A stretch of 64,000 nucleotides of DNA from Thermoanaerobaculia bacterium (GCA_018057705.1 JAGPDF010000016.1:5016-69015); one strand, 5' to 3'. Shown: positions 4,387-55,574, counted from the first letter of the stretch. Program-made: numbers and translations. The notes: generated from the letters alone by a model not told the origin.

Positions 4387-7023
4387 ATGACGCCGATGCT
4401 CCGGCACTATCTGGAGCTCAAGGCCCAGTATCCGGACGCGATCCTGTTCTATCGCATGGGCGACTTCTACGAGCTCTTCTTCGAAGACGCGCTGAAGGTC
4501 GCGCCGCTGCTCGATCTGACCCTGACCGCGCGCCAGAAGGGCACGCCGAACGAGGCCCCGATGTGCGGCGTGCCGCACCACGCGGTGGCCGGGTACATCG
4601 GCAAGCTCATCCGGCTCGGGCTGAAGGTCGCCGTGTGCGATCAGGTGGAGGACCCGGCGCAGGCCAAGGGGCTGGTACGCCGGGAAGTGACACGCGTCGT
4701 CACTCCGGGGACGATCTCGGAGCTCGCTCTGCTCGAGAGCAAGGAGGAGAACCTCCTCGGCGGGATCGTCTGGCAGACCGGGGCCGGAGGTGCCGGCGCC
4801 TTCCTCGACGTCTCGACAGGGAGCTTCTTCCTGCGCCGCTGGCGCGATCCGCTCGAAGCCGTCGCCGACCTCGAGGTCCTGCGCCCGCGCGAGCTGCTTT
4901 GCGACCCCGAGGAGTTGCCGGCCGAGATCGGGGCCTGGGCGGAGCGCGATGTCGCCTGCCGGACGGCCCTCGAAGGCGTCCTCGAATCGCCGGCGAAGGC
5001 GTCGGAGCGGCTCGCCCGCCAGTTCGGGGTCGGTACGCTGCGCGGCTTCGGCCTCGAGGACGGCGAGCCCGGGGTGCGTGCGGCGGCGGCGGTCCTCGCC
5101 TATGCCCAGTCCACCCAGCGCAGCCGGCTCGATCACGTCACCGAGATCCGTCTACGGGCGGCGTCCGATCGGCTGGTCCTCGACGCCACGACGCTCGCCA
5201 ACCTCGAAGTCTTGCGCACGCAGCGCGACGCCGAGCGCGGCAGCTCGCTGCTCACCGTGCTCGATCGCACGGTCACGGCTCCGGGTGGCCGCCTGCTGCG
5301 AGACTGGCTGCGGCGCCCCCTGCGCGAGCTGCCGGAGATCGCCGACCGGCACGACGGCGTCGCCGCCTTCGGCTCCGATCCGTCCCTGCTGGCCCGCCTG
5401 CGGAGCTCGCTCTCGCGTATCGCCGATCTCGAGCGCCTGGCGACCCGCGCCGTCGTCGGTTCGCTCACGCCGCGCGAGGCCGCTCTGCTGCGCGACACGC
5501 TGATCGCGGTGCCAGCGCTCTTCGCGGAGCTCGAGGGGCTCCCCAGCCGCCTGCTCGCCGCTGCGGCCGCCGTCGATCCGATCGCCGATCTGTGCGCCGG
5601 CCTCAAGCAGGGACTCGAAGAGGAGCCGGCGGGGAGTCTCGACGACGGCAGGGTCATCGCCGCCGGCGTGGACGCCGAGCTCGATCAGTATCGCTCCCTC
5701 GCCGCGGACGCCAAGCGCCACATCCTGGAGCTCGAGGAGCGCGAGCGCAAGCGCACCGGAATCTCCTCCCTGAAGGTGCGCTACAACCGTGTCTTCGGTT
5801 ACTCGATCGAGATCACGCGAGCGAATCAGGCGGCGGTGCCCGCCGACTATGTGCGCCGGCAGACGCTCGCCAACGCCGAGCGCTATGTGACTCCGGAGGT
5901 GCAGGAGCTCGAGGAGCGGATTCTCCACGCCGAAGAGCGGCGGCTGGCGATCGAACGCCGGCTCTACGCCGGGTTGGTTGCCGGCATCGCCGGCAATGCG
6001 ACCCGGCTGCAGAAGCTGGGACAGGCGGTCGCGTCGGTGGACACCCTGGCGGCGCTCGCCGAGGTCGCGGCGCGGCGCGGTTACGTGCGGCCGCAGATGC
6101 TGGCGGCCGGGAGCGGTCTCGCGATCGCGGACGGCCGCCATCCGGTGCTCGAAGTGGCCCTGGGCGAGAGCTTCGTCCCCAACGACCTCGAGCTCGATCC
6201 CGGGAGCTCGCAGATCGTCCTGCTGACCGGACCGAACATGGGGGGCAAGTCGACCTACCTGCGGCAGTCGGCTCTCCTCGTGCTGATGGCCCAGGCGGGC
6301 AGCTTCGTGCCGGCCCGGCGCGCGGCGATCGGCGTGGTGGACCGGATCTTCTCGCGAGTCGGCGCATCGGACGATCTGGCGCGCGGCGAGTCGACCTTCA
6401 TGGTCGAGATGATCGAAACCTCGAACATCCTGCGCTTCGCCACGCCGCACAGTCTCGTGATCCTCGACGAAGTCGGGCGGGGGACCGCGACCTTCGACGG
6501 CCTCTCGCTCGCCTGGGCGATCGTCGAGCACCTGCACGAAAGCGTGCGCCCTCTCACCCTTTTCGCCACCCACTACCACGAGCTCACCGAGCTCGCCGAG
6601 CTTCTGCCCCGGGTGGTGAATCGCACCATGGCGGTGAAGGAGTGGGAAGACCGCATCGTCTTCCTGCGCCGCGTTGCTCCGGGGAGCGCCGACAAGTCCT
6701 ACGGCATTCACGTCGCGAAGCTCGCCGGCCTGCCGGAGGGGGTGGTGAAGCGCGCCCAGCAGGTGCTCGCCAATCTCGAGGCGAAGGAGTTCGATCCCGA
6801 GGGGCGACCGCGTCTGGCGCACGGCGAGATGCCGGCCGACCGCAAGGTCGCCCAGCTGCCGCTGTTCTCGCCGCCATCTCCGCCATCTCCCGCCGCTTCC
6901 GCGCCTGCGGTCGCCCCGGCGGCCGAACTCGTCGCCGGCATCCTGCGCGAGCTCGAGGTCGAGCGCCTCACGCCGCTCGCCGCCCTCAACCTTCTCGCCA
7001 GCCTGAAGGAGCGTCTCAAGTGA
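4387..7023 (+). CDS. mutS: DNA mismatch repair protein MutS
   Basis: The N-terminus is TPMLRHYLELKAQYPDAILFYRMGDFYELFFEDA. The protein has the Walker A motif GPNMGGKST and the C-terminal DELGRGT motif, and is 878 aa from the ATG preceded by AGGGGT. The track ORF starts earlier but would overlap the tsaB start. Confidence 0.9.
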   Translation: MTPMLRHYLELKAQYPDAILFYRMGDFYELFFEDALKVAPLLDLTLTARQKGTPNEAPMCGVPHHAVAGYIGKLIRLGLKVAVCDQVEDPAQAKGLVRREVTRVVTPGTISELALLESKEENLLGGIVWQTGAGGAGAFLDVSTGSFFLRRWRDPLEAVADLEVLRPRELLCDPEELPAEIGAWAERDVACRTALEGVLESPAKASERLARQFGVGTLRGFGLEDGEPGVRAAAAVLAYAQSTQRSRLDHVTEIRLRAASDRLVLDATTLANLEVLRTQRDAERGSSLLTVLDRTVTAPGGRLLRDWLRRPLRELPEIADRHDGVAAFGSDPSLLARLRSSLSRIADLERLATRAVVGSLTPREAALLRDTLIAVPALFAELEGLPSRLLAAAAAVDPIADLCAGLKQGLEEEPAGSLDDGRVIAAGVDAELDQYRSLAADAKRHILELEERERKRTGISSLKVRYNRVFGYSIEITRANQAAVPADYVRRQTLANAERYVTPEVQELEERILHAEERRLAIERRLYAGLVAGIAGNATRLQKLGQAVASVDTLAALAEVAARRGYVRPQMLAAGSGLAIADGRHPVLEVALGESFVPNDLELDPGSSQIVLLTGPNMGGKSTYLRQSALLVLMAQAGSFVPARRAAIGVVDRIFSRVGASDDLARGESTFMVEMIETSNILRFATPHSLVILDEVGRGTATFDGLSLAWAIVEHLHESVRPLTLFATHYHELTELAELLPRVVNRTMAVKEWEDRIVFLRRVAPGSADKSYGIHVAKLAGLPEGVVKRAQQVLANLEAKEFDPEGRPRLAHGEMPADRKVAQLPLFSPPSPPSPAASAPAVAPAAELVAGILRELEVERLTPLAALNLLASLKERLK

Positions 7024-10339: not shown

Positions 10340-10427
10340 CGTCCGCTTTGCCTTTCGGGGAATCTAGCCGCAACCGCCGGGAGAGTCAACGCGAACGGCG
10401 GGCCGGTCGCGGAATCCTCTTCCGCTG

Positions 10428-11936
10428 TCATGCCTTGCGCAGCTTCGATTGCATGATGCAGAGCTCGAAGGCGATCTCGGCCTTCGCGACGACACGCTGC
10501 AGATCGGAGAGGTCGCCGGCGGAGAGCTCGACTCCGGTCGTCGATCGCGGCTCGACGAGAAGCGCCGCGACGAGACGCTCCTTGACCTTGACCGGCAACA
10601 CCAGAACGTCCTTGCTGAGCGCCGGTGCCGCGAAACAAGCGGCCAGCAGGGCGTGCGCCGGCAGGGGCGAGAGCGGTCCGCGGAAGTAGGCGCCGGCCTC
10701 GCGCAGTCCCGCGAAGAGCGACGGCTGGGCGAGATCGAGACGCAGCGCTGCGAGTTTCCCCGCATCGATCCCCTCTCCTGACCCGAGCCAGCCGGCGATC
10801 TCCTGTCTGCGCACCACGAAGAGCACCGCGCGTGGCGTGACGCCGGCCGCGAAATCGAGGATGGCGCGCGCGACGTCGTCGCGTTCGCGGGTTTGCAGGA
10901 GGCGCTTCTCGGTCTCTTCGACCGTGAAGCGACGATGAGCGGCGGGCCGTGGCGGAGCCACAGGCGCCGCGGGAGCGACGGCAGCCGGCGATGCCGCCGG
11001 CGGTGGAGACGCGGCGATCGCAGGCGGTGGAGGAGCGGCAGCCGCGGCGGCGTTCTTCGGAGCCCGGGCCGGTTTCGCTGTCGCCGGCCGGGGGGGCGCA
11101 GGGGGTGGCGCTGGCGGCGCGGCGGTTGGCGATGGCGCCGGCGCCGGAGGCAACGCAGCAGGCGGCGGCGGGGGCGGTACGGCGGAGGGCGCGGGCGCCA
11201 TGGGGGCGAGCAGCGGCAGGTCGAGGGACTGGTGCTGGAACTGCGGCAGCTCGGGCGAGATCGGACCCGCACCGTCGGACCTTCCGGCGGGCTTGGCGGC
11301 CGATTTCCCGATGGCCGGGGCGGCAGCCGGGCCCGGGGGGACCTCCGCGGCGGCGTCGCCCGCGATCCGCGAATCCCACTGCAACTGGTCCCCAGACCGG
11401 CCGGCGGCTTCCTCCGATGCGACAGCCGAGGTGTCCCGCGCCCAGAGGAAGCGCGACCGGTTCATCTTGTCGAGCAGCTTCGCCATGCGTGCCGGGCACT
11501 CCTCGCCATGGTGCTTCTCGAGCGCTTCCATCAACCGGAGCTCGAGAGCCACGTACCAGCGAATCCGCTTGCCCACGACGAAGGAGATCTCGTCCTGGGC
11601 GGCCAGATCGCGGGCATCGATGAGCGCCACCTTCACCTGGGTCGAGCTGGCCTGGAAGGCGATGGCGTGACAGCGGCGGGCGACTTTGGACGGCAACAGC
11701 GCCAGGACGTCGTCGGGGATCCCCCGAAGTTCCTCCGGTGTCGCACACGGGGCGCCCTGCTGCTGCGCGAGGGCGCTGCAGAGCTCCTCTTCGCTCACCG
11801 CTTCGATCTCGAGCAGACAGGTTCCGAGACGCCCCCCGACGACCTTCTGATTGCGCAGCGCGCGCAGGAGCTGGTCCCGCGTGATCTGGCCACGCTGCTC
11901 GAGAAGCTCACCCAGGCGGAGTGCGGCAGTGCGCAA
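10428..11936 (-). CDS. MshEN (T2SS-E N-terminal) domain protein with Pro/Ala-rich linker and uncharacterized C-terminal domain; putative c-di-GMP receptor
   Basis: Residues 7-30 (RLGELLEQRGQITRDQLLRALRNQ) and 36-59 (RLGTCLLEIEAVSEEELCSALAQQ) match the tandem 24-residue MshEN c-di-GMP-binding motif. No AAA+ ATPase follows. The product is 502 aa. Confidence 0.6.
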   Translation of the reverse strand: MRTAALRLGELLEQRGQITRDQLLRALRNQKVVGGRLGTCLLEIEAVSEEELCSALAQQQGAPCATPEELRGIPDDVLALLPSKVARRCHAIAFQASSTQVKVALIDARDLAAQDEISFVVGKRIRWYVALELRLMEALEKHHGEECPARMAKLLDKMNRSRFLWARDTSAVASEEAAGRSGDQLQWDSRIAGDAAAEVPPGPAAAPAIGKSAAKPAGRSDGAGPISPELPQFQHQSLDLPLLAPMAPAPSAVPPPPPPAALPPAPAPSPTAAPPAPPPAPPRPATAKPARAPKNAAAAAAPPPPAIAASPPPAASPAAVAPAAPVAPPRPAAHRRFTVEETEKRLLQTRERDDVARAILDFAAGVTPRAVLFVVRRQEIAGWLGSGEGIDAGKLAALRLDLAQPSLFAGLREAGAYFRGPLSPLPAHALLAACFAAPALSKDVLVLPVKVKERLVAALLVEPRSTTGVELSAGDLSDLQRVVAKAEIAFELCIMQSKLRKA

Positions 11937-12045
11937 CGAACCTCCTAATTGTAAGAATCAAAAGAGACTTCTATCGGCTGGCAAGATATCAGGTTGGGGC
12001 CGGCGGGAAAAGTGCCAGTCCAGCTATGATTCCGGTGTGTGCGGC

Positions 12046-13932: not shown

Positions 13933-14713
13933 CCTGCGAAACGGCATCTCTCGCGCTCTCGTCCTGCTTGCCCTCGCGGCTGCGGGCTGCGCCTCCGGCG
14001 GGCCCGGCGGCCGCGCCTCCGGCTCCCAGGCTGCCGCTGCGCCGGCGGCCGTCCCGCCCGCCGCGCAGGTGGACGGCGGGACTTCAGCCGCCGGGCAGTG
14101 GCTGTTTCGCGCCGAGGTCTCGGGCGAAGAGGGCTCGGGGAGCCTGAAGCTCCTGTTGCGCCGCTTCGCCGGGGGGAGCTTCACCCTGGTGGCCTCGGAC
14201 GCGCTCGGGCAGCCACGTTGGGAGATCCGCCGCGACCACGACGAAGCCGTCTGGCTCGATCCGCAAGGAGGCCGGTTCTGCCGGCTCGACGCCCGGCTCC
14301 CGCTGCGCGCCACGCAGTGGGTTCCGAAGATTCAGCTCGCGGACTTCCCTGGACTCCTGATCGGCGAGTGGCCGACGGCGTCCGAGGTGGCGGCATCTGG
14401 CGCAGAGTCGGTGGAGGCGTCCGCGGCGCCGATGGTCCCGGCCGGTCAGCGGATCACCGGGGAACGCGGAGCGCTCGGATGGGCCAGCTGGACGCTGTGG
14501 GAAGAGGGAATCCCCGCGGTCTGGTACAAGCGGCTCGCCTCCGAGTCGCTGCTCTCCGTGCGACGTCCTTCGGTTCAGGTGCGCTGGCGAATGACCGCCC
14601 AGGGACCCCTTCCTCTGTCGCCGGAACAGGAGAGGAGCCCCTTCGCACTGCTGCCCGCAGAGCTCGCCGCGAGCTCCCGGGAGATCGAGTGCCCCGGAAA
14701 TGCGATTCCTTAG
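13847..14713 (+). CDS. outer-membrane lipoprotein, LolB-like by position (upstream of ispE)
   Basis: Carries the lipobox LAAAGC followed by a ~230 aa soluble domain. The conserved TPR-lolB-ispE-prs synteny supports the call. The only in-frame canonical start is ATG 13847, which overlaps the 3' end of the TPR gene by 86 nt. Confidence 0.4.
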   Translation: MPTGGRWPWRRKIPPASQPSWQVWSGTPSLRNGISRALVLLALAAAGCASGGPGGRASGSQAAAAPAAVPPAAQVDGGTSAAGQWLFRAEVSGEEGSGSLKLLLRRFAGGSFTLVASDALGQPRWEIRRDHDEAVWLDPQGGRFCRLDARLPLRATQWVPKIQLADFPGLLIGEWPTASEVAASGAESVEASAAPMVPAGQRITGERGALGWASWTLWEEGIPAVWYKRLASESLLSVRRPSVQVRWRMTAQGPLPLSPEQERSPFALLPAELAASSREIECPGNAIP

Positions 14714-23634: not shown

Positions 23635-24195
23635 ATGGAGGACCGAGCGATGAACGATTCCCTGCCACCCCTGCCGGAGCCTCACGCGAAACCGTTCGCC
23701 CCCGAGAAGATCGCCGGCGGCGGCGGTTGCCAGAGGCCCCTGCTGGTCGGATGCGGTGTCCTGGCGCTGCTCCTCGGGATCGCCGCGGTGGTCTTCGTCG
23801 TCAAGGCCAAGGACGTCCTCGCCTACGCCATCAACCAGCTGCGGACGGAAGTGATGACGCATCTTCCCGAGGACGCTCCGGAGACCGAGCGCCAGCGCCT
23901 CGAGACCGCCTTCGACGCCGCCCTCACCCGCATGCGCAGCGGTGAGCTCGAGCCGGCGTCGCTGCAGGAGCTGCAGAAGAAGCTCACCGCTGCGGCCTCG
24001 GCCGCTTCGACCCGAAACCTGACTCGCGAGGAGCTCGCCGGTCTGATCGGGGCGCTGGACAAGTTCAATCGGGTGGGCACCCCCGCCCCGGCAGGCGTTC
24101 CCGCAGGGGAGCCGGTGGCCCCGGCGGCCGCGCCTTCCGACCCGCCGGGCGGCGCGACGGCGCCCGGCGAGGCGACGAAGCCTCCGGCTCCTTGA
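23635..24195 (+). CDS. hypothetical single-pass membrane protein
   Basis: The ORF contains the TM helix [21 protein letters not shown] and ends adjacent to the uvrB start. The start was chosen at the ATG just outside the mrcA start codon. I found no recognizable domain. Confidence 0.35.
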
Positions 24196-26183
24196 ATCGC
24201 TTCGAGCTCGTCTCCCCGTTCTCTCCCCAGGGCGATCAGCCGGCGGCGATCGAACAGCTCGCCCTCGGCCTCGAGCGCGGCGAGAAGGAGCAGGTCCTGC
24301 TCGGGGTCACCGGCTCCGGCAAGACGTTCTCGATCGCCAAGGTCGTCGAGCGCGTGAACCGGCCGACGCTCGTGCTGTCGCACAACAAGACCCTCGCCGC
24401 CCAGCTCTTCCAGGAGTTCCGGAGTTTCTTCCCGCACAACGCCGTCGAGTACTTCGTCTCCTACTACGACTACTACCAGCCAGAGGCCTACGTTCCGCAG
24501 TCGGACACCTATATCGAGAAGGAAACCAACATCAACGAGGAGATCGACCGCCTGCGTCTGCGCGCCACCAAGGCGCTGTTCGAGCGCCGGGACGTGCTGC
24601 TCGTCGCGTCGGTGTCCTGCATCTACGGCCTGGGCTCGCCGGAGTCGTTCTTCGGGATGCTGGAGTTCTTCGAAAAGGGGAGCGCGACCGGCATGGACCG
24701 GGCGCTCGCCCGCCTGGTCGCCATGCAGTACCAGCGCACCTCGCTCGACCTCTTTCACGGCAGTTTCCGGGTCCGCGGCGACATTCTCGAAGTGCTGCCG
24801 GCGTACGAGGACAACGCCCTGCGCATCGAGTACTTCGGCGACGAGATCGAGCGCATCACGCGCTTCGACCCGCTGCGCGGCGAGGCGATCGAGCTGCTCG
24901 ACCGGGTCGCCGTCTTCCCGCGCACCCACTACGTGACGCCGAAGGAGAACCTCGAGCGCGCCATCGGCTCGATCCAGCGCGAGCTCCGGGCGCGCCTCGA
25001 CGAGCTCGAAGCGGAAGGCAAGCTCCTCGAGCGCCAGCGTCTCGAGCAGCGCACGCGGTTCGATCTCGAGATGCTCAAGGAGACGGGCTACTGCCACGGC
25101 ATCGAGAACTACTCCCGGCATCTCTCGGGGCGCCAGGCCGGAGAGGCGCCACCGACGCTCCTCGACTACTTCCCGCAGGATTTCCTGCTGATCGCCGACG
25201 AGAGCCACCAGACCCTGCCGCAGGTGCGCGGCATGTTCCACGGCGACCGCTCGCGCAAGCAAACGCTGGTGGATTTCGGTTTCCGTCTGCCCTCGGCGCT
25301 CGACAACCGGCCGTTGACCTTCGAGGAGTTCGACGCCCGGATCGGGCAGCGGATCTACGTTTCGGCCACGCCAGCGCCGTGGGAGCTGGCGCGGGTCGGC
25401 GGCGTGGTGGCGGAACAGCTCATCCGGCCGACCGGCCTCCTCGACCCCGAGATCGAGATCCGGCCGGCGAAGGGGCAGGTGGACGACCTGCTCGAGCGCA
25501 TCCGCGAGGTCAGCGCGCGCGGCGAGCGGACTCTGGTGACGACCCTCACCAAGAAGATGGCGGAGGAGCTCACGCAGTACCTCATGGAGTGCGGCGTCCG
25601 GGTGCGTTACCTGCACAGCGACGTCGAGACGCTCGAACGCTCGGCCATCATCACCTCGCTGCGCCGCGGCGAGTTCGACGTTCTGATCGGGATCAACCTG
25701 CTGCGTGAGGGGCTCGACCTGCCGGAGGTGTCGCTGGTCGCGATCCTCGACGCCGACAAGGAGGGGTTCCTGCGCAGCGAGACGGCGCTCATTCAGACCT
25801 CCGGGCGCGCGGCGCGCAACCTCAACGGCAAGGTCGTTCTCTACGCGGACGTCGAAACGAACTCCATCCGCCGCACGGTCGCGGAGACCGGCCGCCGCCG
25901 GGTTCGACAGGAGACCTACAACCGCGAGCACGGCATCGAGCCGCGGACGATCCTCAAGGACATCCACAGCCCGCTGGTGGCGATGAGCAACCTCGACTAC
26001 TCGGCCGGCCTGAGCTCCCGGCTGCTCGAGGTGGCCGACGGTCCCGAAGTGCCGCTCGCGCAGCGCATCGCCAGAGTGGAGAAGGAGATGAAGGCGGCGG
26101 CCAAGCGCCTCGAGTTCGAGGAAGCGGCGCAGTTGCGCGACCGCCTGAAGGAGCTTCGCGAGCAGCAGATCTATGTCGGATGA
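24192..26183 (+). CDS. uvrB: excinuclease ABC subunit B
   Basis: Has the Walker A motif GVTGSGKTF, two helicase domains and a C-terminal UVR domain, starts at a TTG codon, and is 663 aa. Confidence 0.95.
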
Positions 26184-26219
26184 GACGCTGACGAGGCCGC
26201 TCCCGGTGCCGACGGTCTG

Positions 26220-28100
26220 ATGCACGACGATCTTCGCCGGCAGATCGAGGCGCTTCCGGACACCCCCGGTATCTACGTCTTCCGCAACCTCGCCGGCGAG
26301 GCGCTCTACGTCGGCAAGGCGAAGTCTCTGCGCAAGCGGGTGCCCGCCTACCTCGGGCGGGATCTCGAGCCCCGGCTGGCGGCGATGATCGAGCTCGCGG
26401 TTTCGGTCGAGTGCGTGGCAACGGCGACCGAGGCCGCCGCGCTGATGCTCGAGAACAACTGGATCAAGCGCCACCGGCCGCGCTACAACGTCCTCCTCCG
26501 GGACGACAAGACCTACCCCTACCTCAAGCTGACCCGGGAACCCTGGCCCCGGCTGGTCTTCACCCGCCGGATCCGCCAGGACGGCGCCGAGTACTTCGGT
26601 CCCTACCTGCCCGGCGGCCTGGCCCGACGGGCCCTGAAGCTGGTTCAGAAACTCTTCGGCGTGCGCGTCTGCTCGATCGAGATCGACGGCGGCCTGCCGC
26701 GCCCGTGTCTCTATCACGACATGAAGCGCTGCCTGGGCCCCTGTGTCGCCGGCCTGACCTCGAGCGCCGAGTACGCCGAGGCCGTCGAGGGCGCGCGGCT
26801 CTTTCTCGGCGGCAAGACGGCGCCGCTCTGCAAGAGCCTGCGGACGCAGATGGAAGCCGCCGCCGAGAACCTCGAGTTCGAGCGTGCCGCGCGGCTGCGC
26901 GACCTCCTGGCGGAGATCGAGCGCCAGTCGAGCCGTTCGCCGCTCTCGTCGGTGCACGAGGAGGACATCGACCTGTTCGGCGTCGCGGTACACGGCAACC
27001 AGGCGGCGGTTTCGATCCTCGTCATGCGCTCCGGACAGGTGCTCGACCGGCGGGAGGTCTTCTGGGAGGGCGAGAGCGCCGCCAGCCCGCCGCAGTTGCT
27101 GTCGGAGCTCCTGCCCCAGATCTACGACCTCACGACCTTTCTGCCCAAGGAGCTCCATCTGCCTTTCGAAGTGGACGGCGAAGAGGCGCTCGCCGACTGG
27201 ATGTCGGAGCGCAAGGGCGAGCGCGTCTACCTGCGCCATCCCGAGCGCGGCCCGAAGGCGGAACGGCTGCGGATCGCGGCCAAGGACGCCGAGTTCGCCT
27301 TCCGCCGGCGCTATCGCCTCGATCCGTCGCGCGACGCCGCGCCGCGCGCTCTGGCCCGGCACCTCGGCCTCGCCAAGCCGCCTCGGTGGATCGAAGGCTT
27401 CGACATCTCGAACCTCCAGGGCACGGCCGTGATCGCCTCGATGGTGGTCTGGCGGGACGGCCGCATCCGCAAGGGGGAGTACCGCAGCTTCAACATCCGC
27501 AGCTTCGTCGGCCAGGACGACTTCCGCTCGATCGGCGAGGCGGTCGAGCGCCGCTACCGCCGGCTGCGCGAGGAGTCCGGCGTCTTTCCCGACCTGGTGC
27601 TGATCGACGGCGGCCGCGGACAGCTCGGGGCCGCCGCCGCCGCGCTCGCCGGCCTCCAGCTCGAGGACCTGCCGCTGGTCTCGATCGCCAAACGCGAGGA
27701 GGAGCTCTACCTGCCCGGGGCGCCGGAACCGCTCCGGTTGCCTCGCCGCGACGAAGGCCTGCGTCTGCTGCAGATGCTGCGCGACGAGGCTCACCGTTTC
27801 GCCATCTCGAAGCACCGGCGCCAACGCACGACCGGCTCCCTGCGCAGCCGCCTGGAGGAGATTCCTGGCGTCGGTCCGGTGCGACGAAGGCTCCTCGCGC
27901 ATCGCTATGGCACCTGGGAGAGACTGAGCGCGGCGCCTCTCCCGGAGCTCGAGGCGGTGCTCGGCCGCGCTCTCGGCGGTGCCGTCCACCGGCACCTGAC
28001 CGAGGTCGCCGCGCTCGCAGCCGGCGCCCCCGCCGCAGCTCCGGCGCTGCCAGCCGCCGACGCGGCCGATGCCGATGCCGACTCGCGCAGGATCGACTAG
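26220..28100 (+). CDS. uvrC: excinuclease ABC subunit C
   Basis: The N-terminus carries the GIY-YIG motif (PGIYVFRN...LYVGKA), followed by a UvrC homology region and a C-terminal HhH domain. Confidence 0.9.
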   Translation: MHDDLRRQIEALPDTPGIYVFRNLAGEALYVGKAKSLRKRVPAYLGRDLEPRLAAMIELAVSVECVATATEAAALMLENNWIKRHRPRYNVLLRDDKTYPYLKLTREPWPRLVFTRRIRQDGAEYFGPYLPGGLARRALKLVQKLFGVRVCSIEIDGGLPRPCLYHDMKRCLGPCVAGLTSSAEYAEAVEGARLFLGGKTAPLCKSLRTQMEAAAENLEFERAARLRDLLAEIERQSSRSPLSSVHEEDIDLFGVAVHGNQAAVSILVMRSGQVLDRREVFWEGESAASPPQLLSELLPQIYDLTTFLPKELHLPFEVDGEEALADWMSERKGERVYLRHPERGPKAERLRIAAKDAEFAFRRRYRLDPSRDAAPRALARHLGLAKPPRWIEGFDISNLQGTAVIASMVVWRDGRIRKGEYRSFNIRSFVGQDDFRSIGEAVERRYRRLREESGVFPDLVLIDGGRGQLGAAAAALAGLQLEDLPLVSIAKREEELYLPGAPEPLRLPRRDEGLRLLQMLRDEAHRFAISKHRRQRTTGSLRSRLEEIPGVGPVRRRLLAHRYGTWERLSAAPLPELEAVLGRALGGAVHRHLTEVAALAAGAPAAAPALPAADAADADADSRRID

Positions 28101-28111
28101 ACTCTCCAGCC

Positions 28112-29614
28112 ATGCAAGGGCCGACGGGCGGAAGGATGGGGGATCTGAAGGACAAGCCGATCCTCGATGTGCTCCGGGAGTTCCACTTCCGCCACGCCAC
28201 CGGCATTCTCGAGGTCGACGGCGGCGAGCACAAGCGCCGGCTCTTCCTGCGTGACGGCAGCCTCTATCTCGCCGGCACGCATCCTCTCGCACGGCGGTTG
28301 GGCGAGCTGGTGAGCGCGCTCTCCGACCCGACCCAGGCCGCCGCAGCCGCCGAGTCCAGGCGGCGATTCCTGGAGTTGGTCGAGCGCATGGCGCGGGTGA
28401 TAGGCGAATGGCGCACCGGCCACTATCGCTTCGTCGACGACCCTGGACTGCTCACGGTGGAGCTGGTCGGGCCGCTGCCGACCCGCCGGCTGCTGATGGT
28501 CGGCTCGACGATCGGGGCGACGCCGGCGCAGCTGCTTTCGATGCTGGGTGGAGATCGCGCGGCGTTGGCCGCCGTTTCCGAGCGCGATCTGCCTCCCGAG
28601 CCGAAGGATCAGCTCGGTCTCGGCCCCGAAGAGCAGTTCCTGCTCGAGCGCCTGCGTCAGCCGATGACCCTGGGCGAGATCGTCGGGGAGAGTCCCCTCG
28701 ACCGCGAGGGCACGCATCGCCTCCTGGCCCAGCTGCTCGCGGTCCGCAAGATCCGTGTCCTCGGGCGAGCCGATCCCGCCAGCGCGGCTCCGGTGCAGGA
28801 CGCGGCGCTGCTGCAGAGCTTCTCGACCCGGTTCGAGCGCAACCTCAGGGAGGAGCCGCTCCAGCTCACCCAGGTGGAGTTCCGGACGCGCGTGGCGGAG
28901 CTCTTCGCGCGCATCGGCGCGATGAACTTCTACGAGCTGCTGGAAGTCGATCCGGCAGCCTCGGCCGATCAGGTACAGACGCGCTACGAAGCGCTGGCTC
29001 GTCTGGTTCACCCGTCCAACGAGGCGGCGTTCGGCCTGACCGGCTTGAAGCCGATGCTCGCGATGCTCTTCGACCGCGCCACGCAGGCCTACCTCGCGCT
29101 CTCCGATCCCGAGCGCCGCCGGCTCTACAACCAGAGTCAGGCGATCGATCTGTCGACGGCGCGGGTCACCGGCGCCGAGCGCGAGGTCGAGTCGAAGGAT
29201 CTGGCCCGCAACTACTTCGAGCAGGCGCAGGCCCAGGTGGCGCGCGGCGATTTCCACTACGCCGTCGAGCTCCTGCAGCTCGCGGTCTCGCTCGACCGGC
29301 GGCCCGACTACCTTCTCGCGCTGGCGCGGGTGGAGCTGCGGAACCCGAAGTGGCTGCAGCGCGCCGCCGACTCCTGCCGGGCGGCGCTGGAGATCGAGCC
29401 GCAGAACGCCGAGGTGCGCTTCGTGTTGGGCGAGGTCTACGAGCTGCTGGGCGACACGGAGCGGGCGCGCGGGCAGTTCACGGCCGCGACGCGATCGAAC
29501 CCGGGGCACGTCATGGCGCAGGCCAAGCTCAGGAACCTGAGCCAACCCAAACCCGCGCCGTCGGACGCGGAAGGCGGCCTCTTCAGCCGCATCTTCCGTC
29601 GTCGCGACGAGTAG
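28112..29614 (+). CDS. DUF4388 (PATAN-like) domain / J-domain / TPR protein
   Basis: The N-terminus contains LDVLREFHFRHATGILEVDGGEHKRRLFLRDGSLYLA, which is DUF4388-like. The central J-domain (MNFYELLEVDPAASADQVQTRYEALARLVHPS) has the HPD motif replaced by HPS, and the C-terminus has TPR-like helices. The product is the real 3' third of track ORF 26411..29614. Confidence 0.6.
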   Translation: MQGPTGGRMGDLKDKPILDVLREFHFRHATGILEVDGGEHKRRLFLRDGSLYLAGTHPLARRLGELVSALSDPTQAAAAAESRRRFLELVERMARVIGEWRTGHYRFVDDPGLLTVELVGPLPTRRLLMVGSTIGATPAQLLSMLGGDRAALAAVSERDLPPEPKDQLGLGPEEQFLLERLRQPMTLGEIVGESPLDREGTHRLLAQLLAVRKIRVLGRADPASAAPVQDAALLQSFSTRFERNLREEPLQLTQVEFRTRVAELFARIGAMNFYELLEVDPAASADQVQTRYEALARLVHPSNEAAFGLTGLKPMLAMLFDRATQAYLALSDPERRRLYNQSQAIDLSTARVTGAEREVESKDLARNYFEQAQAQVARGDFHYAVELLQLAVSLDRRPDYLLALARVELRNPKWLQRAADSCRAALEIEPQNAEVRFVLGEVYELLGDTERARGQFTAATRSNPGHVMAQAKLRNLSQPKPAPSDAEGGLFSRIFRRRDE

Positions 29615-29659
29615 CGCCGTCGCTGGCAGAGGAGCGAGTCCGGGTGGTATCTTGAATCC

Positions 29660-30054
29660 GGTCGAAGAGCCCGGCGCGGTCGCTCCACGTTCGCGTGGAG
29701 AGGAAAGTCCGGACTCCAACGGGTGGCATGCTCGCCAACGGCGAGGCGCAGTGATGCGACGGAAAGTGCAACAGAAAACAGACCGCCCCGCCTTCGGGCG
29801 AGGTAAGGGTGAAACGGCGCGGTAAGAGCGCACCGCCCGGCCGGCGACGGTCCGGGGCAAGGCAAACCCCATGCGGAGCAAGACCAAATAGGGGGATGGC
29901 AGTGCGGGCCGCCCGTCCCGCCCGTTCCGGTTCGCCGGGACGACTTCCCCGGGTAGGTTGCTCGAGGCCGGCGGCAACGCCGGTCCCAGAGGAATGACCG
30001 TGACCGGCATCGCGAGATGACGGCACAGAACTCGGCTTATCGGGCTCTTCGACC
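29660..30054 (+). ncRNA. rnpB: RNase P RNA, bacterial type A
   Basis: P1 is formed by GGTCGAAGAGCCCG at 29660..29673 pairing with CGGGCTCTTCGACC at 30041..30054. The universal elements present are GGAAAGTCCGGACTCC, GGTAAGGGTGAAACGGCGCGGTAAGAGCGCACC and ACAGAACTCGGCTTATCGG, and the gene is about 395 nt. Confidence 0.8.
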
Positions 30055-30085
30055 CCTTTTCCGCCCACTCCCGCCCATCTCCGCC

Positions 30086-30982
30086 ATGGCCCCGGTTCTC
30101 CCCCCAGCCGTCCGTCCCGGCGATCGCGTCGGCATCGCGGCGCTCTCCGGTCCGGTCGACCCCGTCCGGCTGACGAACGGCATCGCCGAGCTCGCGCGGC
30201 TCGGTTTCGAGCCGGTGCCGGCGCGCAACCTCGACCGCCGTGCGGGACTCTTCGCCGGCGACGACGCCCTGCGCGCTGCGGCGTTCCACGAGCTCGCCGA
30301 CGATCCCTCGCTCTCCGCGATTTTCTTCGCCCGCGGCGGCCACGGCCTGATGCGCGTCCTGCCGCTCCTCGACTGGGATCGGCTCGCGGCGACGCCGCGC
30401 GCCTACGTCGGCTACTCGGATCTGACGCCCTTCCTGCTGAACGTCGTCGAGCGTCTCGGCTGGGTCGCCTTCCACGGCCCGATGGTTGCGGCGGAGATGG
30501 CCCGCGGCCTCGCCGACGAAGAGAGCGCCAGCCTGCTGACGGCGCTCGCCGGCGATCCCCGGCAGGAGCTCGCGCTCGGACGGGTGATCGCCGGGTCGGA
30601 TCCGGCCGAGGGTCCTCTCCTCGGCGGTTGCCTCAGCCTTCTCGCCGGTGTCGCCGGCACCCCGTTCGCCACGCCCTTTGGCGACGCCGTGCTGTTCGTC
30701 GAGGACGTCGGCGAACCGCTCTACCGGGTCGATCGGATGTTGACCCAGTTGGACCTGTCCGGTAGTCTGGCCGCGGTTCGCGCCATGGTTTTCGGAACCT
30801 CCACTTTTTCCCCTCTCGACGAGGCCACGGCCGACCTGATCCGCGATCGCGCGGGCGATCGGACGGTCGCTTTCGGCCTGTCCGCCGGGCATACCGCACC
30901 AAACTTCACGCTGCCGCTCGGGTGCTCCGCCCGGATCGACGCGGACAGCTCGCTGCTCGTCATCGACCACCCTCAGGGCTAG
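30086..30982 (+). CDS. ldcA: LD-carboxypeptidase (peptidase S66, muramoyltetrapeptide carboxypeptidase-like)
   Basis: Contains the S66 core motifs GYSDLTPF and GHGLMR. The start was set at ATG 30086 because the upstream part of the track ORF overlaps rnpB. Confidence 0.7.
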   Translation: MAPVLPPAVRPGDRVGIAALSGPVDPVRLTNGIAELARLGFEPVPARNLDRRAGLFAGDDALRAAAFHELADDPSLSAIFFARGGHGLMRVLPLLDWDRLAATPRAYVGYSDLTPFLLNVVERLGWVAFHGPMVAAEMARGLADEESASLLTALAGDPRQELALGRVIAGSDPAEGPLLGGCLSLLAGVAGTPFATPFGDAVLFVEDVGEPLYRVDRMLTQLDLSGSLAAVRAMVFGTSTFSPLDEATADLIRDRAGDRTVAFGLSAGHTAPNFTLPLGCSARIDADSSLLVIDHPQG

Positions 30983-30997
30983 AGAGCGAGATCCGCC

Positions 30998-31813
30998 ATG
31001 GCGACCAGCAAGCCGGTCTTCAAGACCACGAGCAAGAAGCCGAACCTGCCGAACTACACCGTGGAGTTCGAGGCCGCCGAGTTCATCTTCAGCGAAGGCG
31101 ATCTCGGGATGGAGATGTACATCATTCACGAGGGCAAGATCGAGATCCTGAAGAGCATCCAGGGCGAGCAGCGCCAGCTCGCGGTGCTCGAGAAGGGCGA
31201 CTTCTTCGGCGAGATGGCGATTCTCGAAGATCTCCCGCGGACCGCTGCGGCGCGGGCCCTCACCGCCGTGAAGCTGCTGCTCATCAACGGCGCCACGTTC
31301 GACCAGATGCTGCGCACGAATCCGGAGATCGCGGTGCGGATGATGCGCAAGCTGTCGCGCCGCCTGCGCGACACCGACCATCTGCTGCGCGACTCGCCGG
31401 CGGCCGTCGCCGCGCTGGAACAGCCGACGCCGACCGTGGGCTCGGGCGCATTGCGCCTTCCGGGCAGCACCGAAACCGCGCCCGGCGTCGGTCCGCAGCG
31501 CCTCGTGCACGACAAGTCGGGGATGGAGTTCGCGCTCGCCAAGGGGGCCGAGACGATGATCGGCCGCCGCGACCCGGTGACCGGCATCGACCCCGACATC
31601 GACCTCACCCCCGCCGACACCCAGCGCTCGATCAGCCGCCGCCACGCCAAGATCTACCGCCGCGAAGGCAAGTTCTTCATCGCCGAAGAGATCGGCACCA
31701 TGAACGGCACCTTCGTCAACGGCACCCGCCTCGAAACCGGCGTCCCCACCGAAATCAAATTCGACGACGAAGTCCGCTGCGGCCTCGTCAACCTCAAGTT
31801 CAAAGCCGAGTAG
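30998..31813 (+). CDS. cyclic-nucleotide-binding domain + FHA domain protein
   Basis: The N-terminal cNMP-binding domain has FGEMAIL and a PRTAAARA phosphate-binding cassette. The C-terminal FHA domain contains GRRDPVTGIDPDIDLTP...SRRHAKIYRREGKFFIAEEIGTMNGTFVNGTRL. Confidence 0.7.
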   Translation: MATSKPVFKTTSKKPNLPNYTVEFEAAEFIFSEGDLGMEMYIIHEGKIEILKSIQGEQRQLAVLEKGDFFGEMAILEDLPRTAAARALTAVKLLLINGATFDQMLRTNPEIAVRMMRKLSRRLRDTDHLLRDSPAAVAALEQPTPTVGSGALRLPGSTETAPGVGPQRLVHDKSGMEFALAKGAETMIGRRDPVTGIDPDIDLTPADTQRSISRRHAKIYRREGKFFIAEEIGTMNGTFVNGTRLETGVPTEIKFDDEVRCGLVNLKFKAE

Positions 31814-31825
31814 CACAGCACCCCG

Positions 31826-32049
31826 CAGCTGGGGACATGTAGCTGCCTCAAGCGAAGGCTGCCCCGACCTGCGATCGCTACAGGGCGGATGCGTGTCCCC
31901 GGCGTACCTCTTCCGCCAGCTGGGGACATGTAGCTGCTCCAGCGAAGGTGCTCCCCGCAGCTGGGGACATGTAGCTGCCCCAAGCGAAGGCTGTCCCGAC
32001 CTGCGATCGCCGCAGGGCGGATACGTGTCCCCGGCGTACCTCTTCCGCC
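31826..32049. repeat. tandem direct repeat, 92 bp unit, about 2.4 copies
   Basis: Copy 1 spans 31826..31917, and copy 3 spans 31958..32049 with about 5 mismatches. A 40 bp partial copy lies between them at 31918..31957. Each unit starts CAGCTGGGGACATGTAGCTGC and ends GGCGTACCTCTTCCGCC. Confidence 0.75.
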
Positions 32050-32069
32050 TCGCCCGTGGTCGCGCTGCT

Positions 32070-32278
32070 CCGGCACTCGGGATCCAAGGCGGGCTCCTAT
32101 TTGAAGCGTGGTCGCCCACCTTGGATCCCGAGCGCCCTCGCGTCGCGGTGAGACGGGGTAGATGGGGACAATCCTCTTTTGTCCTTGCTGCTGTTCCGCC
32201 TGGGGCGCTCTGGCGCTCGGGATCTAGAGTGGGCGACCACGCCTCAAATAGGAGCCCGCTCTAGATCCCGAGTGCCGG
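32070..32278. repeat. long imperfect inverted repeat (two ~50 bp arms) flanking a ~110 bp core with a nested inner inverted repeat; MITE-like or structured-RNA element
   Basis: The left arm CCGGCACTCGGGATCCAAGGCGGGCTCCTATTTGAAGCGTGGTCGCCCAC (32070..32119) is the reverse complement of the right arm 32229..32278, with about 4 mismatches. The inner pair is TGGATCCCGAGCGCC (32121..) against GGCGCTCGGGATCTA (32211..). The motif TCGGGATC/GATCCCGA occurs four times. Confidence 0.65.
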
Positions 32279-36436: not shown

Positions 36437-37456
36437 GTGTCGGACTCTCAAATCGTACTTTCAGGAATGCGCTCCACCGGGAAGCTCCATCTCGGCCATC
36501 TCTTCGGCACCCTGCACAACTGGGTCGAGCTGCAGGAGAAGCATCGCTGCTACTTCTTCGCCGCCGACTGGCACGCCCTGACCAGCGACTACGCCGACCC
36601 GTCGAAGGTCACCGAGAACACCGTCGAGGCGTTCGCCGACTGGATCGCCGCGGGTGTGGATCCCGAGCGGTCCGTCGTCTTCGTCCAGTCGATGGTGCCG
36701 GAGCACGCCGAGCTGCATCTCATCCTGTCGATGATCACGCCGCTCGGCTGGCTGGAGCGCGTCCCGACCTACAAGGACCAGATCCGCGAGATCGAGAATC
36801 GGGACCTGAACACCTACGGCTTCCTCGGCTACCCGGTCCTCCAGACCTCGGACATCATCCTCTACCGCGCCCACTTCGTTCCCGTCGGCGAGGACCAGGC
36901 GAGCCATCTCGAGCTGTCGCGCGAGATCACGCGCCGCTTCAACAGCCTCTACGGCAACGTCTTTCCGGAGCCGAAGGCGCTGTTCACGAAGACCCCGAAG
37001 GTGCCCGGCCTCGACGGCCGCAAGATGTCGAAGTCGTACGACAACGCCATCAACCTCTCGGATCCGCCGGCGGTCGTGCGGCAGAAGTGCATGACCATGT
37101 TCACCGACCCGACGCGGGTGAGGAAGAGCGATCCCGGGCATCCCGAGAGCTGCAACCTGTTCGAGTTCCACAAGCTGCTTTCGCCCTTGGATCTCCAGGA
37201 GCGCGTGGCGCGCGACTGCCGCGCGGCGGTGATCGGGTGCGTCGAGGACAAGAAGCTCCTGGCGGAGCAGATCATCGCCCTCCTCGAGCCGATCCAGCAG
37301 CGGCGCCACGAGCTGCTGCGCGAGCGCGGTGCGCTGCTCTCGCTGCTGCGCGATGGTTCGGTGCGCGCCCGCGAGCGCGCCCAGGAGACCATGGCGCAGG
37401 TGCGCGGCGCCCTCGGTCTCGACTACGACCGCCTCTTGCAGCGGGAACTCCAGTGA
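36437..37456 (+). CDS. trpS: tryptophan--tRNA ligase
   Basis: Has the class I motifs GKLHLGH (HIGH) and KMSKS. A GTG start is preceded by AAGGAG, and an alternative GTG lies at 36410. Confidence 0.85.
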   Translation: MSDSQIVLSGMRSTGKLHLGHLFGTLHNWVELQEKHRCYFFAADWHALTSDYADPSKVTENTVEAFADWIAAGVDPERSVVFVQSMVPEHAELHLILSMITPLGWLERVPTYKDQIREIENRDLNTYGFLGYPVLQTSDIILYRAHFVPVGEDQASHLELSREITRRFNSLYGNVFPEPKALFTKTPKVPGLDGRKMSKSYDNAINLSDPPAVVRQKCMTMFTDPTRVRKSDPGHPESCNLFEFHKLLSPLDLQERVARDCRAAVIGCVEDKKLLAEQIIALLEPIQQRRHELLRERGALLSLLRDGSVRARERAQETMAQVRGALGLDYDRLLQRELQ

Positions 37457-38244
37457 GCGCGGCACCGGCCGTCACCCGCCTGCTGCCGGAGGCGTGGCGG
37501 GTCCACCTGCCGGTGTTCGACGGGCCGCTCGACCTCCTGCTGCACCTCATCAAGCTCAACGAGGTCGAGATCACCGACATCCCGGTGGCGACGATCTGCG
37601 ATCAGTTCCACGAGTACCTGCGGCTGATGGAAGAGATGGACCTGGACATCGCCGGCGAGTACATCTACGAAGCGGCGCTGCTGATCCAGCTGAAGTCGCG
37701 GCTCCTCCTGCCGCGCCCGAAAAAGACCGACGGCGAACCCTCCGACGAGGATCCGCGCGGCGAGCTCGTGCAGCGGCTGCTGGAGTACCGCCGGATCAAG
37801 GAGGCGGCGCAGGCCCTGGCCGAGGTGGACCGCATGCGGCTCGGTCTCTGGGCCCGCCGCAAGCCCGCCTGGGAGGAGGAGCAGGGCGAAGAGGTCGACA
37901 TGGACGAGGTCTCGCTCTTCGACCTCCTCTCCGCCTTTCGCGGCGTGCTCGACCGCTACGACCGGGAGAATCCCGATCCGATCCTGTTGCCGGCGGAGAG
38001 TTACCCGGTGCGCGGCCAGTTCGAGCGCCTGCTCGACATCCTGAACGCCGGCGCGCCCTTCGACTTCATTCACGACCTGCGGACCCGGAGCTGCCGCGCC
38101 GAGGCGATCGCCGCGTTCCTCGCGGTCCTCGAGCTCGCGCGCTTGCGGCTGGTGCGGATTCACCAGACGGAGTCCGGCGAGATCGTCCTCTACCGGACGA
38201 CCCTCGATCCGACCGCGGAAGACCTGGAGAGTGTGGACGCATGA
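37453..38244 (+). CDS. scpA: segregation and condensation protein A
   Basis: The GTG start overlaps the trpS stop. The product contains the ScpA kleisin motifs FDGPLDLLLHLIKLNEVEI. Confidence 0.85.
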   Translation: MSAAPAVTRLLPEAWRVHLPVFDGPLDLLLHLIKLNEVEITDIPVATICDQFHEYLRLMEEMDLDIAGEYIYEAALLIQLKSRLLLPRPKKTDGEPSDEDPRGELVQRLLEYRRIKEAAQALAEVDRMRLGLWARRKPAWEEEQGEEVDMDEVSLFDLLSAFRGVLDRYDRENPDPILLPAESYPVRGQFERLLDILNAGAPFDFIHDLRTRSCRAEAIAAFLAVLELARLRLVRIHQTESGEIVLYRTTLDPTAEDLESVDA

Positions 38245-38906
38245 TCAGTCGAGCCGATCTCGAGGCCGCCCTGGAGGCGGTGCTGTTCGCAGCCGCCCAG
38301 CCGGTGCCCGTCGACCGCCTGGCCGGCCTCTTCGAAGGTGTCTCGGCGGAGGATCTCGACGCCGCTCTGACCGCGCTGCGGGCGCGCTATCAACCGGAGC
38401 CGGGACGGGGCCTGTTCATCGAAGAGGTCGCCGGCGGACTTCGCATCGTGACGGCGGCGGAGTACCATCCCTATCTCAAGAAGTTCTTCGACGCCGCCGG
38501 CGGCAACAAGCTCTCGATGGCGGCGATCGAGACCCTGGCGATCGTCGCCTACCGCCAGCCGGTGACGGCGCCGGAGGTGCAGGAGATGCGCGGCAAGCAG
38601 TCCCAGGCCGTGATCCGCAACCTGCTGGAGAAGCGCCTGCTCCGGATCTCGGGGAGGAAGGAAGTGGTCGGCCGGCCCTTCCTGTATTCGACCACGCGGG
38701 AATTCCTCATGCATTTCGGCCTGAAGGGCCTGGGTGAGCTGCCGCCTCTCGAGGAGTTCGAGGAGACGTTCGGCAGCGAGCCGGTCGAAGCGATCGAAGT
38801 TCCCGATTCGACCGCTGCGACGGAGACGATGGAAGCGCATGAGCCCGCCGAATCCGATTCGGCGGCAGCGTTCGAAGTGGAGTCTTTAAGTCCGGAGGAA
38901 TCGTGA
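38241..38906 (+). CDS. scpB: segregation and condensation protein B
   Basis: The ATG start overlaps the scpA stop. The product has the ScpB winged-helix repeats (LETLAIVAYRQPVT). Confidence 0.85.
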   Translation: MISRADLEAALEAVLFAAAQPVPVDRLAGLFEGVSAEDLDAALTALRARYQPEPGRGLFIEEVAGGLRIVTAAEYHPYLKKFFDAAGGNKLSMAAIETLAIVAYRQPVTAPEVQEMRGKQSQAVIRNLLEKRLLRISGRKEVVGRPFLYSTTREFLMHFGLKGLGELPPLEEFEETFGSEPVEAIEVPDSTAATETMEAHEPAESDSAAAFEVESLSPEES

Positions 38907-49141: not shown

Positions 49142-49882
49142 GTGGGAGGCGCGCGGTCCAGGCGGGAAGGTACCCCGGCGGACGACTGGAGGATCGGTCC
49201 GGCGAGTCTCGCACTCTCCGGCCTCATACGCGGCCTCGCTGCAACGATCGACTTCCGCTTCCACGACGACGCCGCCGTGCGCGCCTGGGAGCGCGAAGGA
49301 CGACCTTTCATCCTCGCCTTCTGGCATCGTCACCTGATCCTGATGCGCTACGCCTATCGCGGCGCGCGGATGAGCGTCCTGGTGAGCCAGAGTTGGGATG
49401 GCGAGCTGACCTCGCAGACCCTCGCCCATCTGGGTATAGACACCTGCCGCGGTTCTTCGAGCCAGGGCGGAGCAGCGGCACTGCGCGACCTCCTGCGGCG
49501 GGCGCGCTCGGGTTCGGACCTCGCCTTCACTCCCGACGGGCCGCGCGGACCGGTGCGCGAGGTCCAGCCCGGCGTCATCGTCGCGGCCGCGCTGACCGGA
49601 TTTCCGATCCAGCCGGTCGCCATCGCGGCCAACCGGCGCAAGCTCCTGCGCAGTTGGGACAGAATGCTCGTGCCGTTGCCCGGCGCGCGGGTCGACGTGG
49701 TCTACGGTATGCCGCTCCACGTGCCACCGCGGAGCCCGGTCGCCGAGGGGGCCCTGCGGCTGGAGCAGTCGCTGCTCGCCCTCGAAAAGCGGGCGGAGGA
49801 GCTCTCGGGGCATCCGCAGGGGCCGCAGGGGCCGCCGGCGGCGGAGAGCACGAACGCTGTCGGCGGTGGAGGGGATCGATGA
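49142..49882 (+). CDS. DUF374 / lysophospholipid acyltransferase-like protein (lipid A-associated)
   Basis: The product contains FWHRHLILMRY and DGPRGP. A gene of this kind is common next to msbA and kdtA genes. It starts at GTG, 1 nt after the msbA stop. Confidence 0.5.
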   Translation: MGGARSRREGTPADDWRIGPASLALSGLIRGLAATIDFRFHDDAAVRAWEREGRPFILAFWHRHLILMRYAYRGARMSVLVSQSWDGELTSQTLAHLGIDTCRGSSSQGGAAALRDLLRRARSGSDLAFTPDGPRGPVREVQPGVIVAAALTGFPIQPVAIAANRRKLLRSWDRMLVPLPGARVDVVYGMPLHVPPRSPVAEGALRLEQSLLALEKRAEELSGHPQGPQGPPAAESTNAVGGGGDR

Positions 49883-55563: not shown

Positions 55564-55574
55564 CGGCCCCAGGC

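Follow-up and report, generated by a model that had tools for sequence, protein, structure and literature searches.

MshEN is a widespread receptor domain for cyclic di-GMP (c-di-GMP) whose fusion partners include ATPase, glycosyltransferase, REC, HD-GYP, CheA/CheX, cyclase and kinase domains (PMC5013675). Several proteins carry it without an ATPase, among them Myxococcus xanthus FrgA (MshEN-UNK-HEAT), Pseudomonas aeruginosa PA3740 (MshEN-xT2SSE_N1) and the MshEN-REC protein Glov_2262 (PMC5013675), and ATPases of GAF-MshEN-T2SSE architecture exist as well, e.g. Geobacter lovleyi Glov_1971 (PMC5013675, Supplementary Table 4). That MshEN can regulate partners other than ATPases is illustrated by NfrB, a c-di-GMP-activated glycosyltransferase (PMC8669469). 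Here we analyze a gene carried by a 64,000-nucleotide stretch of the genome of a Thermoanaerobaculia bacterium (GCA_018057705.1, JAGPDF010000016.1:5016-69015; hereafter the window), whose product combines an N-terminal MshEN module with a Pro/Ala-rich linker and a C-terminal domain that, as judged from a structure prediction, is a divergent GAF domain.

The gene is a complete coding sequence on the minus strand (10428..11936; 502 codons and a stop). It starts with a TTG codon, which is preceded at a distance of 4 nt by a Shine-Dalgarno sequence read as AGGAGG (11941..11946, minus strand) whose position is the same in the orthologous loci, and, outside the Pro/Ala stretch, its codon-position GC content resembles that of the neighboring genes (GC3 about 0.8-0.9, GC2 about 0.4-0.55). 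Four regions can be distinguished, all on the minus strand: the 53-residue c-di-GMP motif (residues 7-59; 11760..11918), a T2SSE_N1-like subdomain, or MshEN_C (residues 73-145; 11502..11720), a low-complexity linker predicted to act as a flexible tether (residues ~166-336; 10929..11441) and the GAF domain (residues 337-502; 10431..10928), recognized within the family by a signature on its long C-terminal helix and upstream of it. An earlier note on this DNA had delimited the same open reading frame (ORF) and had described both halves of the tandem 24-residue MshEN motif in its N-terminus, no ATPase after them, a ~140-residue PAPA-type linker and a ~165-aa globular C-terminal region. All of this agrees with our results, the linker being 170 aa long (58% Pro+Ala) with a P/A-rich core of ~135 aa, and the C-terminal region being a conserved globular domain of ~166 aa.

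The overall layout sets the protein apart from each of the systems mentioned above. It shares with Vibrio cholerae MshE (Protein Data Bank (PDB) entry 5HTL) and the PilB/PilF ATPases the 53-residue tandem motif with its 5-residue spacer, followed by T2SSE_N1; however, it has a linker and a GAF domain where these proteins carry the T2SSE ATPase, and its gene lies outside any pilus or secretion operon. Indeed, no T2SSE ATPase was found in the protein by Pfam, NCBIfam or PDB sequence searches: matches to the PilB and GspE models stop within the first 150-160 residues and score far under the cutoffs of these models, and the PDB matches, all to N-domains of PilF, PilB, MshE and XpsE, are confined to residues 5-157. 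Like FrgA, PA3740 and Glov_2262, the protein joins the MshEN receptor module to non-enzymatic or uncharacterized domains, but its C-terminal partner is a GAF domain and the homology to these proteins is seen in the MshEN module only. FrgA was considered as a homologue and rejected, since its published architecture is MshEN-UNK-HEAT and domain scans of our protein detected no HEAT or other repeats, nor any REC domain. Glov_1971 also holds GAF and MshEN in one polypeptide; by contrast, in the protein studied here the GAF domain is C-terminal, a disordered linker of ~170 aa lies in between and there is no ATPase. Finally, the N-domain matches the MshEN region of the NfrB model (E 5.8e-12, far under the cutoff of this full-length model), whereas the catalytic GT2 output domain of NfrB has no counterpart.

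The N-terminal module bears the features of a c-di-GMP receptor. The NCBIfam model NF053729 ('c-di-GMP_motif') covers residues 7-59 over its entire length (1-53/53; E 8.3e-14, 51.1 bits versus a cutoff of 38), and Pfam MshEN (PF05157), the sole Pfam match in the protein, falls on residues 73-145 (E 8.6e-12, 45.3 bits versus a cutoff of 23.1), a segment that aligns with the PilB, PilF and MshE N-domains in the PDB. The motif is defined as RLGxxL(L/V/I)xxG(L/V/I/F)(L/V/I)xxxxLxxxLxxQ occurring twice with a 5-residue join, i.e. as a 53-residue unit; here, the two 24-residue repeats (R7-Q30 and R36-Q59) are joined by KVVGG. In the PDB, the motif is matched best by GSPII-B of PilF, a domain of high affinity.

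Residues 6-60 align without a gap to residues 8-62 of V. cholerae MshE, in which R9, L10, G11, D12, L25, L29, Q32, G40, L54 and L58 have been highlighted as binding determinants, most of them being mutated in the same work (PMC5013675). In the first repeat, R9, L10 and G11 correspond to R7, L8 and G9, D12 to E10, a conservative change, and L25, L29 and Q32 to L23, L27 and Q30; in the second, R38, L39 and G40 correspond to R36, L37 and G38, and L54, L58 and Q61 to L52, L56 and Q59. Every highlighted determinant is thus kept, D12 as a glutamate. These positions are also strongly conserved across the family described below: the third position is a glycine in 88 of 97 members in one repeat and in 85 of 97 in the other, and positions 17 and 21 of repeat II are each a leucine in 93 of 97. 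Since the determinants are retained and conserved family-wide, binding of c-di-GMP by the MshEN module is well predicted from the sequence.

We set out the evidence that the fusion is genuine together with the contrary view, namely that the 502-aa ORF is an artefact made of two genes joined by a chance open frame in GC-rich non-coding DNA. An initial word-indexed search with the C-terminal 172 aa as the query returned nine proteins, mostly fragments of 132 aa (range 132-194 aa), and the two domains are encoded in separate frames in contigs L001, L003 and L004; both observations would fit an artefact. However, these contigs are frameshifted in many genes, mutS, dtd and the M50 protease gene included; their names resemble those of long-read assemblies, and we read the frameshifts as indel errors. 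Public gene calls are often C-terminal fragments of 132-194 aa because the contigs of these metagenome-assembled genomes (MAGs) are frameshifted. An exhaustive search with a profile of the C-terminal domain retrieved representatives of 514 clusters (at 50% identity) with E ≤ 1e-3, of which 178 reach E ≤ 1e-10, so that the family comprises at least 178 clusters at the stricter threshold; most representatives are 380-600 aa long and end with this domain. The domain scan covered 97 full-length representatives, and every one of them begins with Pfam MshEN and has the C-domain at its very end. In species-representative genomes, scanned with a closer 8-sequence alignment, 20 loci were found, all in Thermoanaerobaculia or Acidobacteriota MAGs, and each of the 18 loci that are complete has one uninterrupted ORF of 387-490 aa, which runs from the RLGE motif at its start to the C-domain at its end. 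The linker is poorly conserved and varies from 28 to 340 aa in the family (median 114), yet it is in frame at every complete locus. By our estimate, a stretch of some 150 codons at ~70% GC would by chance alone be free of stops in the required frame in ~2% of genomes, so the recurrence at 18 of 18 loci is not due to chance. Together with the architecture shared by the 97 representatives, this refutes the artefact, to which we give next to no credence: the MshEN-linker-GAF fusion ORF is real and conserved. It also answers a question raised in the earlier note, whether the C-terminal domain recurs with MshEN. All public names recovered for the members, which come from Acidobacteriota or Thermoanaerobaculia MAGs, are "hypothetical protein".

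Within the frameshifted contigs, the frameshifts in this gene map to 4857-6399 in L001, 4968-6585 in L003 and about 4839-6399 in L004, and the gene calls there also include a spurious ORF on the opposite strand, across the MshEN domain. A second subfamily, whose C-terminal helix ends with FEVYILKNKIR, occurs in unrelated gene contexts (L027 5001-7360; L031 4118-6386). In L027, an uncharacterized 273-aa gene overlaps the stop codon of the subfamily gene; in L031, two genes lie just upstream of it, one for a stand-alone GAF protein and one of the DNA_binding_1 (MGMT-like) family.

The identity of the C-terminal domain was addressed by structure prediction. With a shallow alignment of 7 sequences, AlphaFold2 gave an unusable model (predicted local distance difference test (pLDDT) 45); with a 133-sequence alignment drawn from the exhaustive profile search, it returned a confident one (pLDDT 94.6, predicted template modeling score (pTM) 0.90). 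When this model was compared with the PDB by Foldseek, the top 50 matches were solely GAF domains (best E 1.8e-7, probability 1.00, TM-scores 0.65-0.74), including the Lcd1 GAF (5W10), a Geobacter GAF (3EEA), the PtsP GAF, DosS GAF-A and the PDE5/PDE2 GAFs. The model displays the arrangement by which we define a GAF fold, i.e. an antiparallel beta-sheet flanked on one face by the two terminal helices (N- and C-) and on the other by the helices and loops that form the pocket. At the sequence level the relationship is faint. Neither Pfam GAF nor GAF_2 matches the window protein even at E ≤ 1; among its relatives, at E ≤ 1e-3, GAF_2 was recognized in 17 of 97 and GAF in 7 of 97, and two GAF_2 matches that we looked at cover the model from end to end within the C-domain, but their scores of 20-22 bits stay under the cutoff of 28.6. 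In the PDB, a profile of the C-domain family picked up only two entries at E ≤ 10; each is a GAF domain, and neither match is significant (E 0.13 and 0.58).

Identity to GAF domains of known structure, such as 3OOV (Geobacter methyl-accepting chemotaxis protein), 5W10 (Leptospira Lcd1, cAMP-binding) and 3TRC/3CI6 (PtsP), is only 9-15%, and unlike these the domain has no Pfam GAF match and has conserved motifs of its own. The 'NKFDE' signature of cyclic nucleotide-binding GAF domains (the PDE2/5/6 and CyaB subclass) is absent from it, because the domain does not contain any asparagine. The positions conserved in the family are R369, G382-W383 (the tryptophan invariant), G387, P405-S406-x-F408-x-x-L411, G420-x-L422 (the glycine invariant), P448, V456 and A489-x-E491-x-x-I494-x-x-x-K498, which we place on the first two strands, a helix/loop segment and the 29-residue terminal helix, there in its distal half. 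Conservation is highest in the PSxF / GPLPPxPAH segment and in the last helix (AFELCIMxxKLR). In GAF domains generally, a helix and loop segment forms the lid of the pocket, and we take the PSxF / GPLPPxPAH segment to be the pocket-lid side of this domain.

As judged from the AlphaFold2 model, the C-terminal domain is a very divergent GAF domain and not a new fold. The earlier note had regarded this region as unassignable and had proposed a c-di-GMP receptor with a new output domain, to be examined by AlphaFold and Foldseek. The domain is real, but its novelty is gone: with GAF folds alone among the top 50 matches, the outcome is the one that the earlier note had itself named as a refutation of its idea. 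The receptor half of the proposal is upheld by the intact motif, and the new output domain is not.

Taken together, these observations probably describe an MshEN-linker-GAF protein that binds c-di-GMP, the binding being predicted from its motif. To account for them we propose a soluble, cytoplasmic signaling protein in three parts. The MshEN module would consist of a four-helix MshEN_N bundle and the T2SSE_N1-like subdomain, and would most likely bind one c-di-GMP through its two tandem repeats in the manner of V. cholerae MshE and Thermus thermophilus PilF. The long, fast-evolving Pro/Ala linker would serve as a flexible tether. The third part, the GAF domain, would be responsible for dimerization and for binding a partner or a ligand. 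Occupancy of MshEN by the nucleotide would alter the dimerization of the GAF domain and/or of T2SSE_N1, or their engagement with a partner, making the protein a c-di-GMP-gated adaptor, and the GAF pocket might provide a second small-molecule input. No enzymatic, DNA-binding or membrane domain was found in the protein, so the output would be a protein-protein interaction. We favor this three-part explanation as a whole, with some reserve; the adaptor mechanism specifically is a tentative proposal to which we give a little less than even weight. Several points weigh against it. The binding of c-di-GMP is a predicted function, GAF dimerization and pocket occupancy are assumptions that we make from general knowledge of GAF domains, and the housekeeping neighbors of the gene point to no partner. 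In addition, position 10 of repeat II, where the published relaxed motif expects G, A or S, is a glutamate (E45), which could lower the affinity for c-di-GMP; among the 97 family members, this position is occupied by glycine in 49, by aspartate in 27 and by glutamate in 12.

The last point bears on the possibility that the MshEN module is degenerate and plays a structural or interaction role without binding c-di-GMP, as is the case for XpsE and for certain PilB proteins. Some MshEN domains indeed do not bind the nucleotide (PMC5013675), and E45 takes the place of the usual small residue; nevertheless, the full retention and family-wide conservation of the determinants, a score above the curated cutoff of the binding-motif model NF053729 and the high-affinity PilF GSPII-B as the best PDB match of the motif all argue for binding, and we consider degeneracy improbable. 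A different view retains the binding and shifts the output: the protein would be a dual-input sensor, with the GAF domain binding a distinct small ligand and T2SSE_N1 docking on the base of a type IV pilus or type II secretion system (T2SS), where it would compete with the ATPase or modulate it. T2SSE_N1 in GspE and PilB contacts platform proteins (GspE-GspL), and this subdomain is intact here. The conserved PSxF / GPLPPxPAH segment lies where, by our placement, a ligand-pocket lid is expected, and the ATPase-less MshEN proteins PA3740 and FrgA, whose reported motility phenotypes such a role would resemble, affect swarming and aggregation (PMC5013675). Yet domain scans of the 64-kb window revealed neither genes for pili or secretion nor any GGDEF, EAL or HD-GYP genes; no pilus or T2SS genes lie beside any examined orthologue, and the GAF domain bears none of the known ligand signatures. 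This view overlaps with the adaptor explanation, from which it differs mainly in the domain that gives the output, and we hold it to be unlikely.

The remaining alternatives draw on the gene neighborhood. An HU/IHF-family gene lies 88 nt downstream of the MshEN-GAF gene on the same strand, as the earlier note had recorded, and it is found on the same strand 50-100 nt downstream in the 20 Acidobacteriota loci and in L029 and L030 as well, in L029 despite a changed flank. This constancy, and the lack of any terminator-like site found between the two genes, would fit a functional coupling in which c-di-GMP controls HU or the two proteins are co-expressed; M. xanthus CdbA, a c-di-GMP-binding nucleoid protein, is an analogue in theme. 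Against this, a promoter scan identified a sigma-70-like site (TTGACT-17-TAGATT; 10361-10389, minus strand) in the 88-nt spacer, so HU is probably transcribed from its own promoter; at L025, a distant orthologue of low GC, the TPR/ispE/spoVG and dtd/ssb neighbors are retained but both HU and M50 are missing; and the second subfamily resides in unrelated contexts. As the whole block is conserved housekeeping synteny, the adjacency may be inherited and not functional. We regard it as mostly inherited, the functional evidence being weak, and coupling to HU as very improbable. There is likewise only a slim chance that the protein is the founding member of a near-core c-di-GMP effector that spans the Acidobacteriota lineage and is tied to an adjacent housekeeping process, with the GAF domain as an output surface and not a sensor. 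If so, the process would be sought in the adjacent HU/IHF gene or in the divergent TPR-lipoprotein-IspE envelope cluster, and expression would be gated by a conserved 5' leader sequestering the Shine-Dalgarno sequence.

For a genome with 70% GC, the 5' region of the gene (11947-12011, minus strand) shows unusual conservation, and it occupies the same position in L001-L015. In the cross-species alignment, an AT-rich leader, TCTCTTTTGATTCTTACAATT (11947..11967, minus strand), abuts the Shine-Dalgarno sequence and may contain a partner for it; it is nearly identical in L001-L012 although coding identity drops to ~65%. A structured RNA was considered, but the support from RNAalifold is weak: the hairpin pairing CCTTT with the Shine-Dalgarno sequence reaches -2.35 kcal/mol, with one pair varying (CG:7/UA:3). 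The leader may be a translational control element. Further upstream, a promoter-like site (11983..12011, minus strand) is suggested by the same alignment and was not called by the consensus scan; it would comprise a -35 element TTTTCC (12006-12011), a 17-nt spacer and an extended -10 element TG-n-TATCTT (11983-11991). The homologous position holds TTTACA-N18-TATAAT in L019 and TTGCCA-N17-TAGGAT in L020-L022.

The window as a whole is a housekeeping stretch of the chromosome. It carries psd/pssA, mutS, ssb, dtd, the M50 protease gene, HU, the MshEN-GAF gene and the gene for the TPR protein, along with genes for a lipoprotein, ispE, spoVG, a tRNA, prs, L25, L9, PBP1A, RNase P RNA, recG, a trpS/tyrS-type synthetase, cmk, S1, lpxB, an msbA-like gene, coaBC, pepA and a MacAB-TolC-like system. 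RNase P RNA and the tRNA are the only RNA families found in it, and there is no c-di-GMP riboswitch among them. The order spoVG-ispE-lipoprotein-TPR, followed by the divergent MshEN-GAF gene, HU, M50, dtd and ssb, persists in almost all Acidobacteriota loci, even at 40-50% protein identity, and in L030; in L029, TPR and HU are kept and the genes past HU differ.

The earlier note had described the gene as divergent from a secreted TPR/lolB operon. The TPR gene is indeed upstream and divergent and its product has a signal peptide; since the MshEN-GAF protein has none, direct contact between the two is unlikely. The lolB label, by contrast, found no backing: the 259-aa protein in the 'lolB' position before ispE (13934-14713, plus strand) has a lipobox-like N-terminus (LALAAAGC) but no Pfam or NCBIfam match. 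In L029, a YajQ-family gene (5612-6118, minus strand) lies just past HU, a single case that may be a coincidence; YajQ proteins reportedly bind c-di-GMP in Xanthomonas. Elsewhere in the window, on the minus strand, a 1489-aa ORF (23823-28292) with a moderate coding-frame signal and no Pfam match at E ≤ 1e-5 may be a large uncharacterized protein or may be partly spurious, and a 1340-aa mechanical ORF (28097-32119) is probably no gene, as it overlaps the RNase P RNA (29663-30055, plus strand; RF00010, 275.8 bits). Four further coding-like ORFs on the minus strand have no Pfam match at the same threshold (37423-38163, 38190-38840, 49702-50997 and 55428-56666).

The MshEN-linker-GAF architecture without an ATPase does not appear in the table of PMC5013675, nor was it found in full-text literature searches (MshEN+GAF, MshEN+Acidobacteria). 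It varies a known receptor theme only modestly and holds no surprise for a specialist; it brings no new fold or signaling principle, and it adds one more case of MshEN without an ATPase. In practical terms, the C-terminal domain of the family can now be annotated as GAF, and the case serves as a warning that frameshifted MAG assemblies split the MshEN-GAF gene into meaningless 132-aa fragments. Acidobacteriota are a dominant phylum of soils and sediments, and we know of no experimental work on c-di-GMP signaling in them. The family offers a concrete and conserved candidate receptor, and with it an entry point to c-di-GMP signaling in this phylum.
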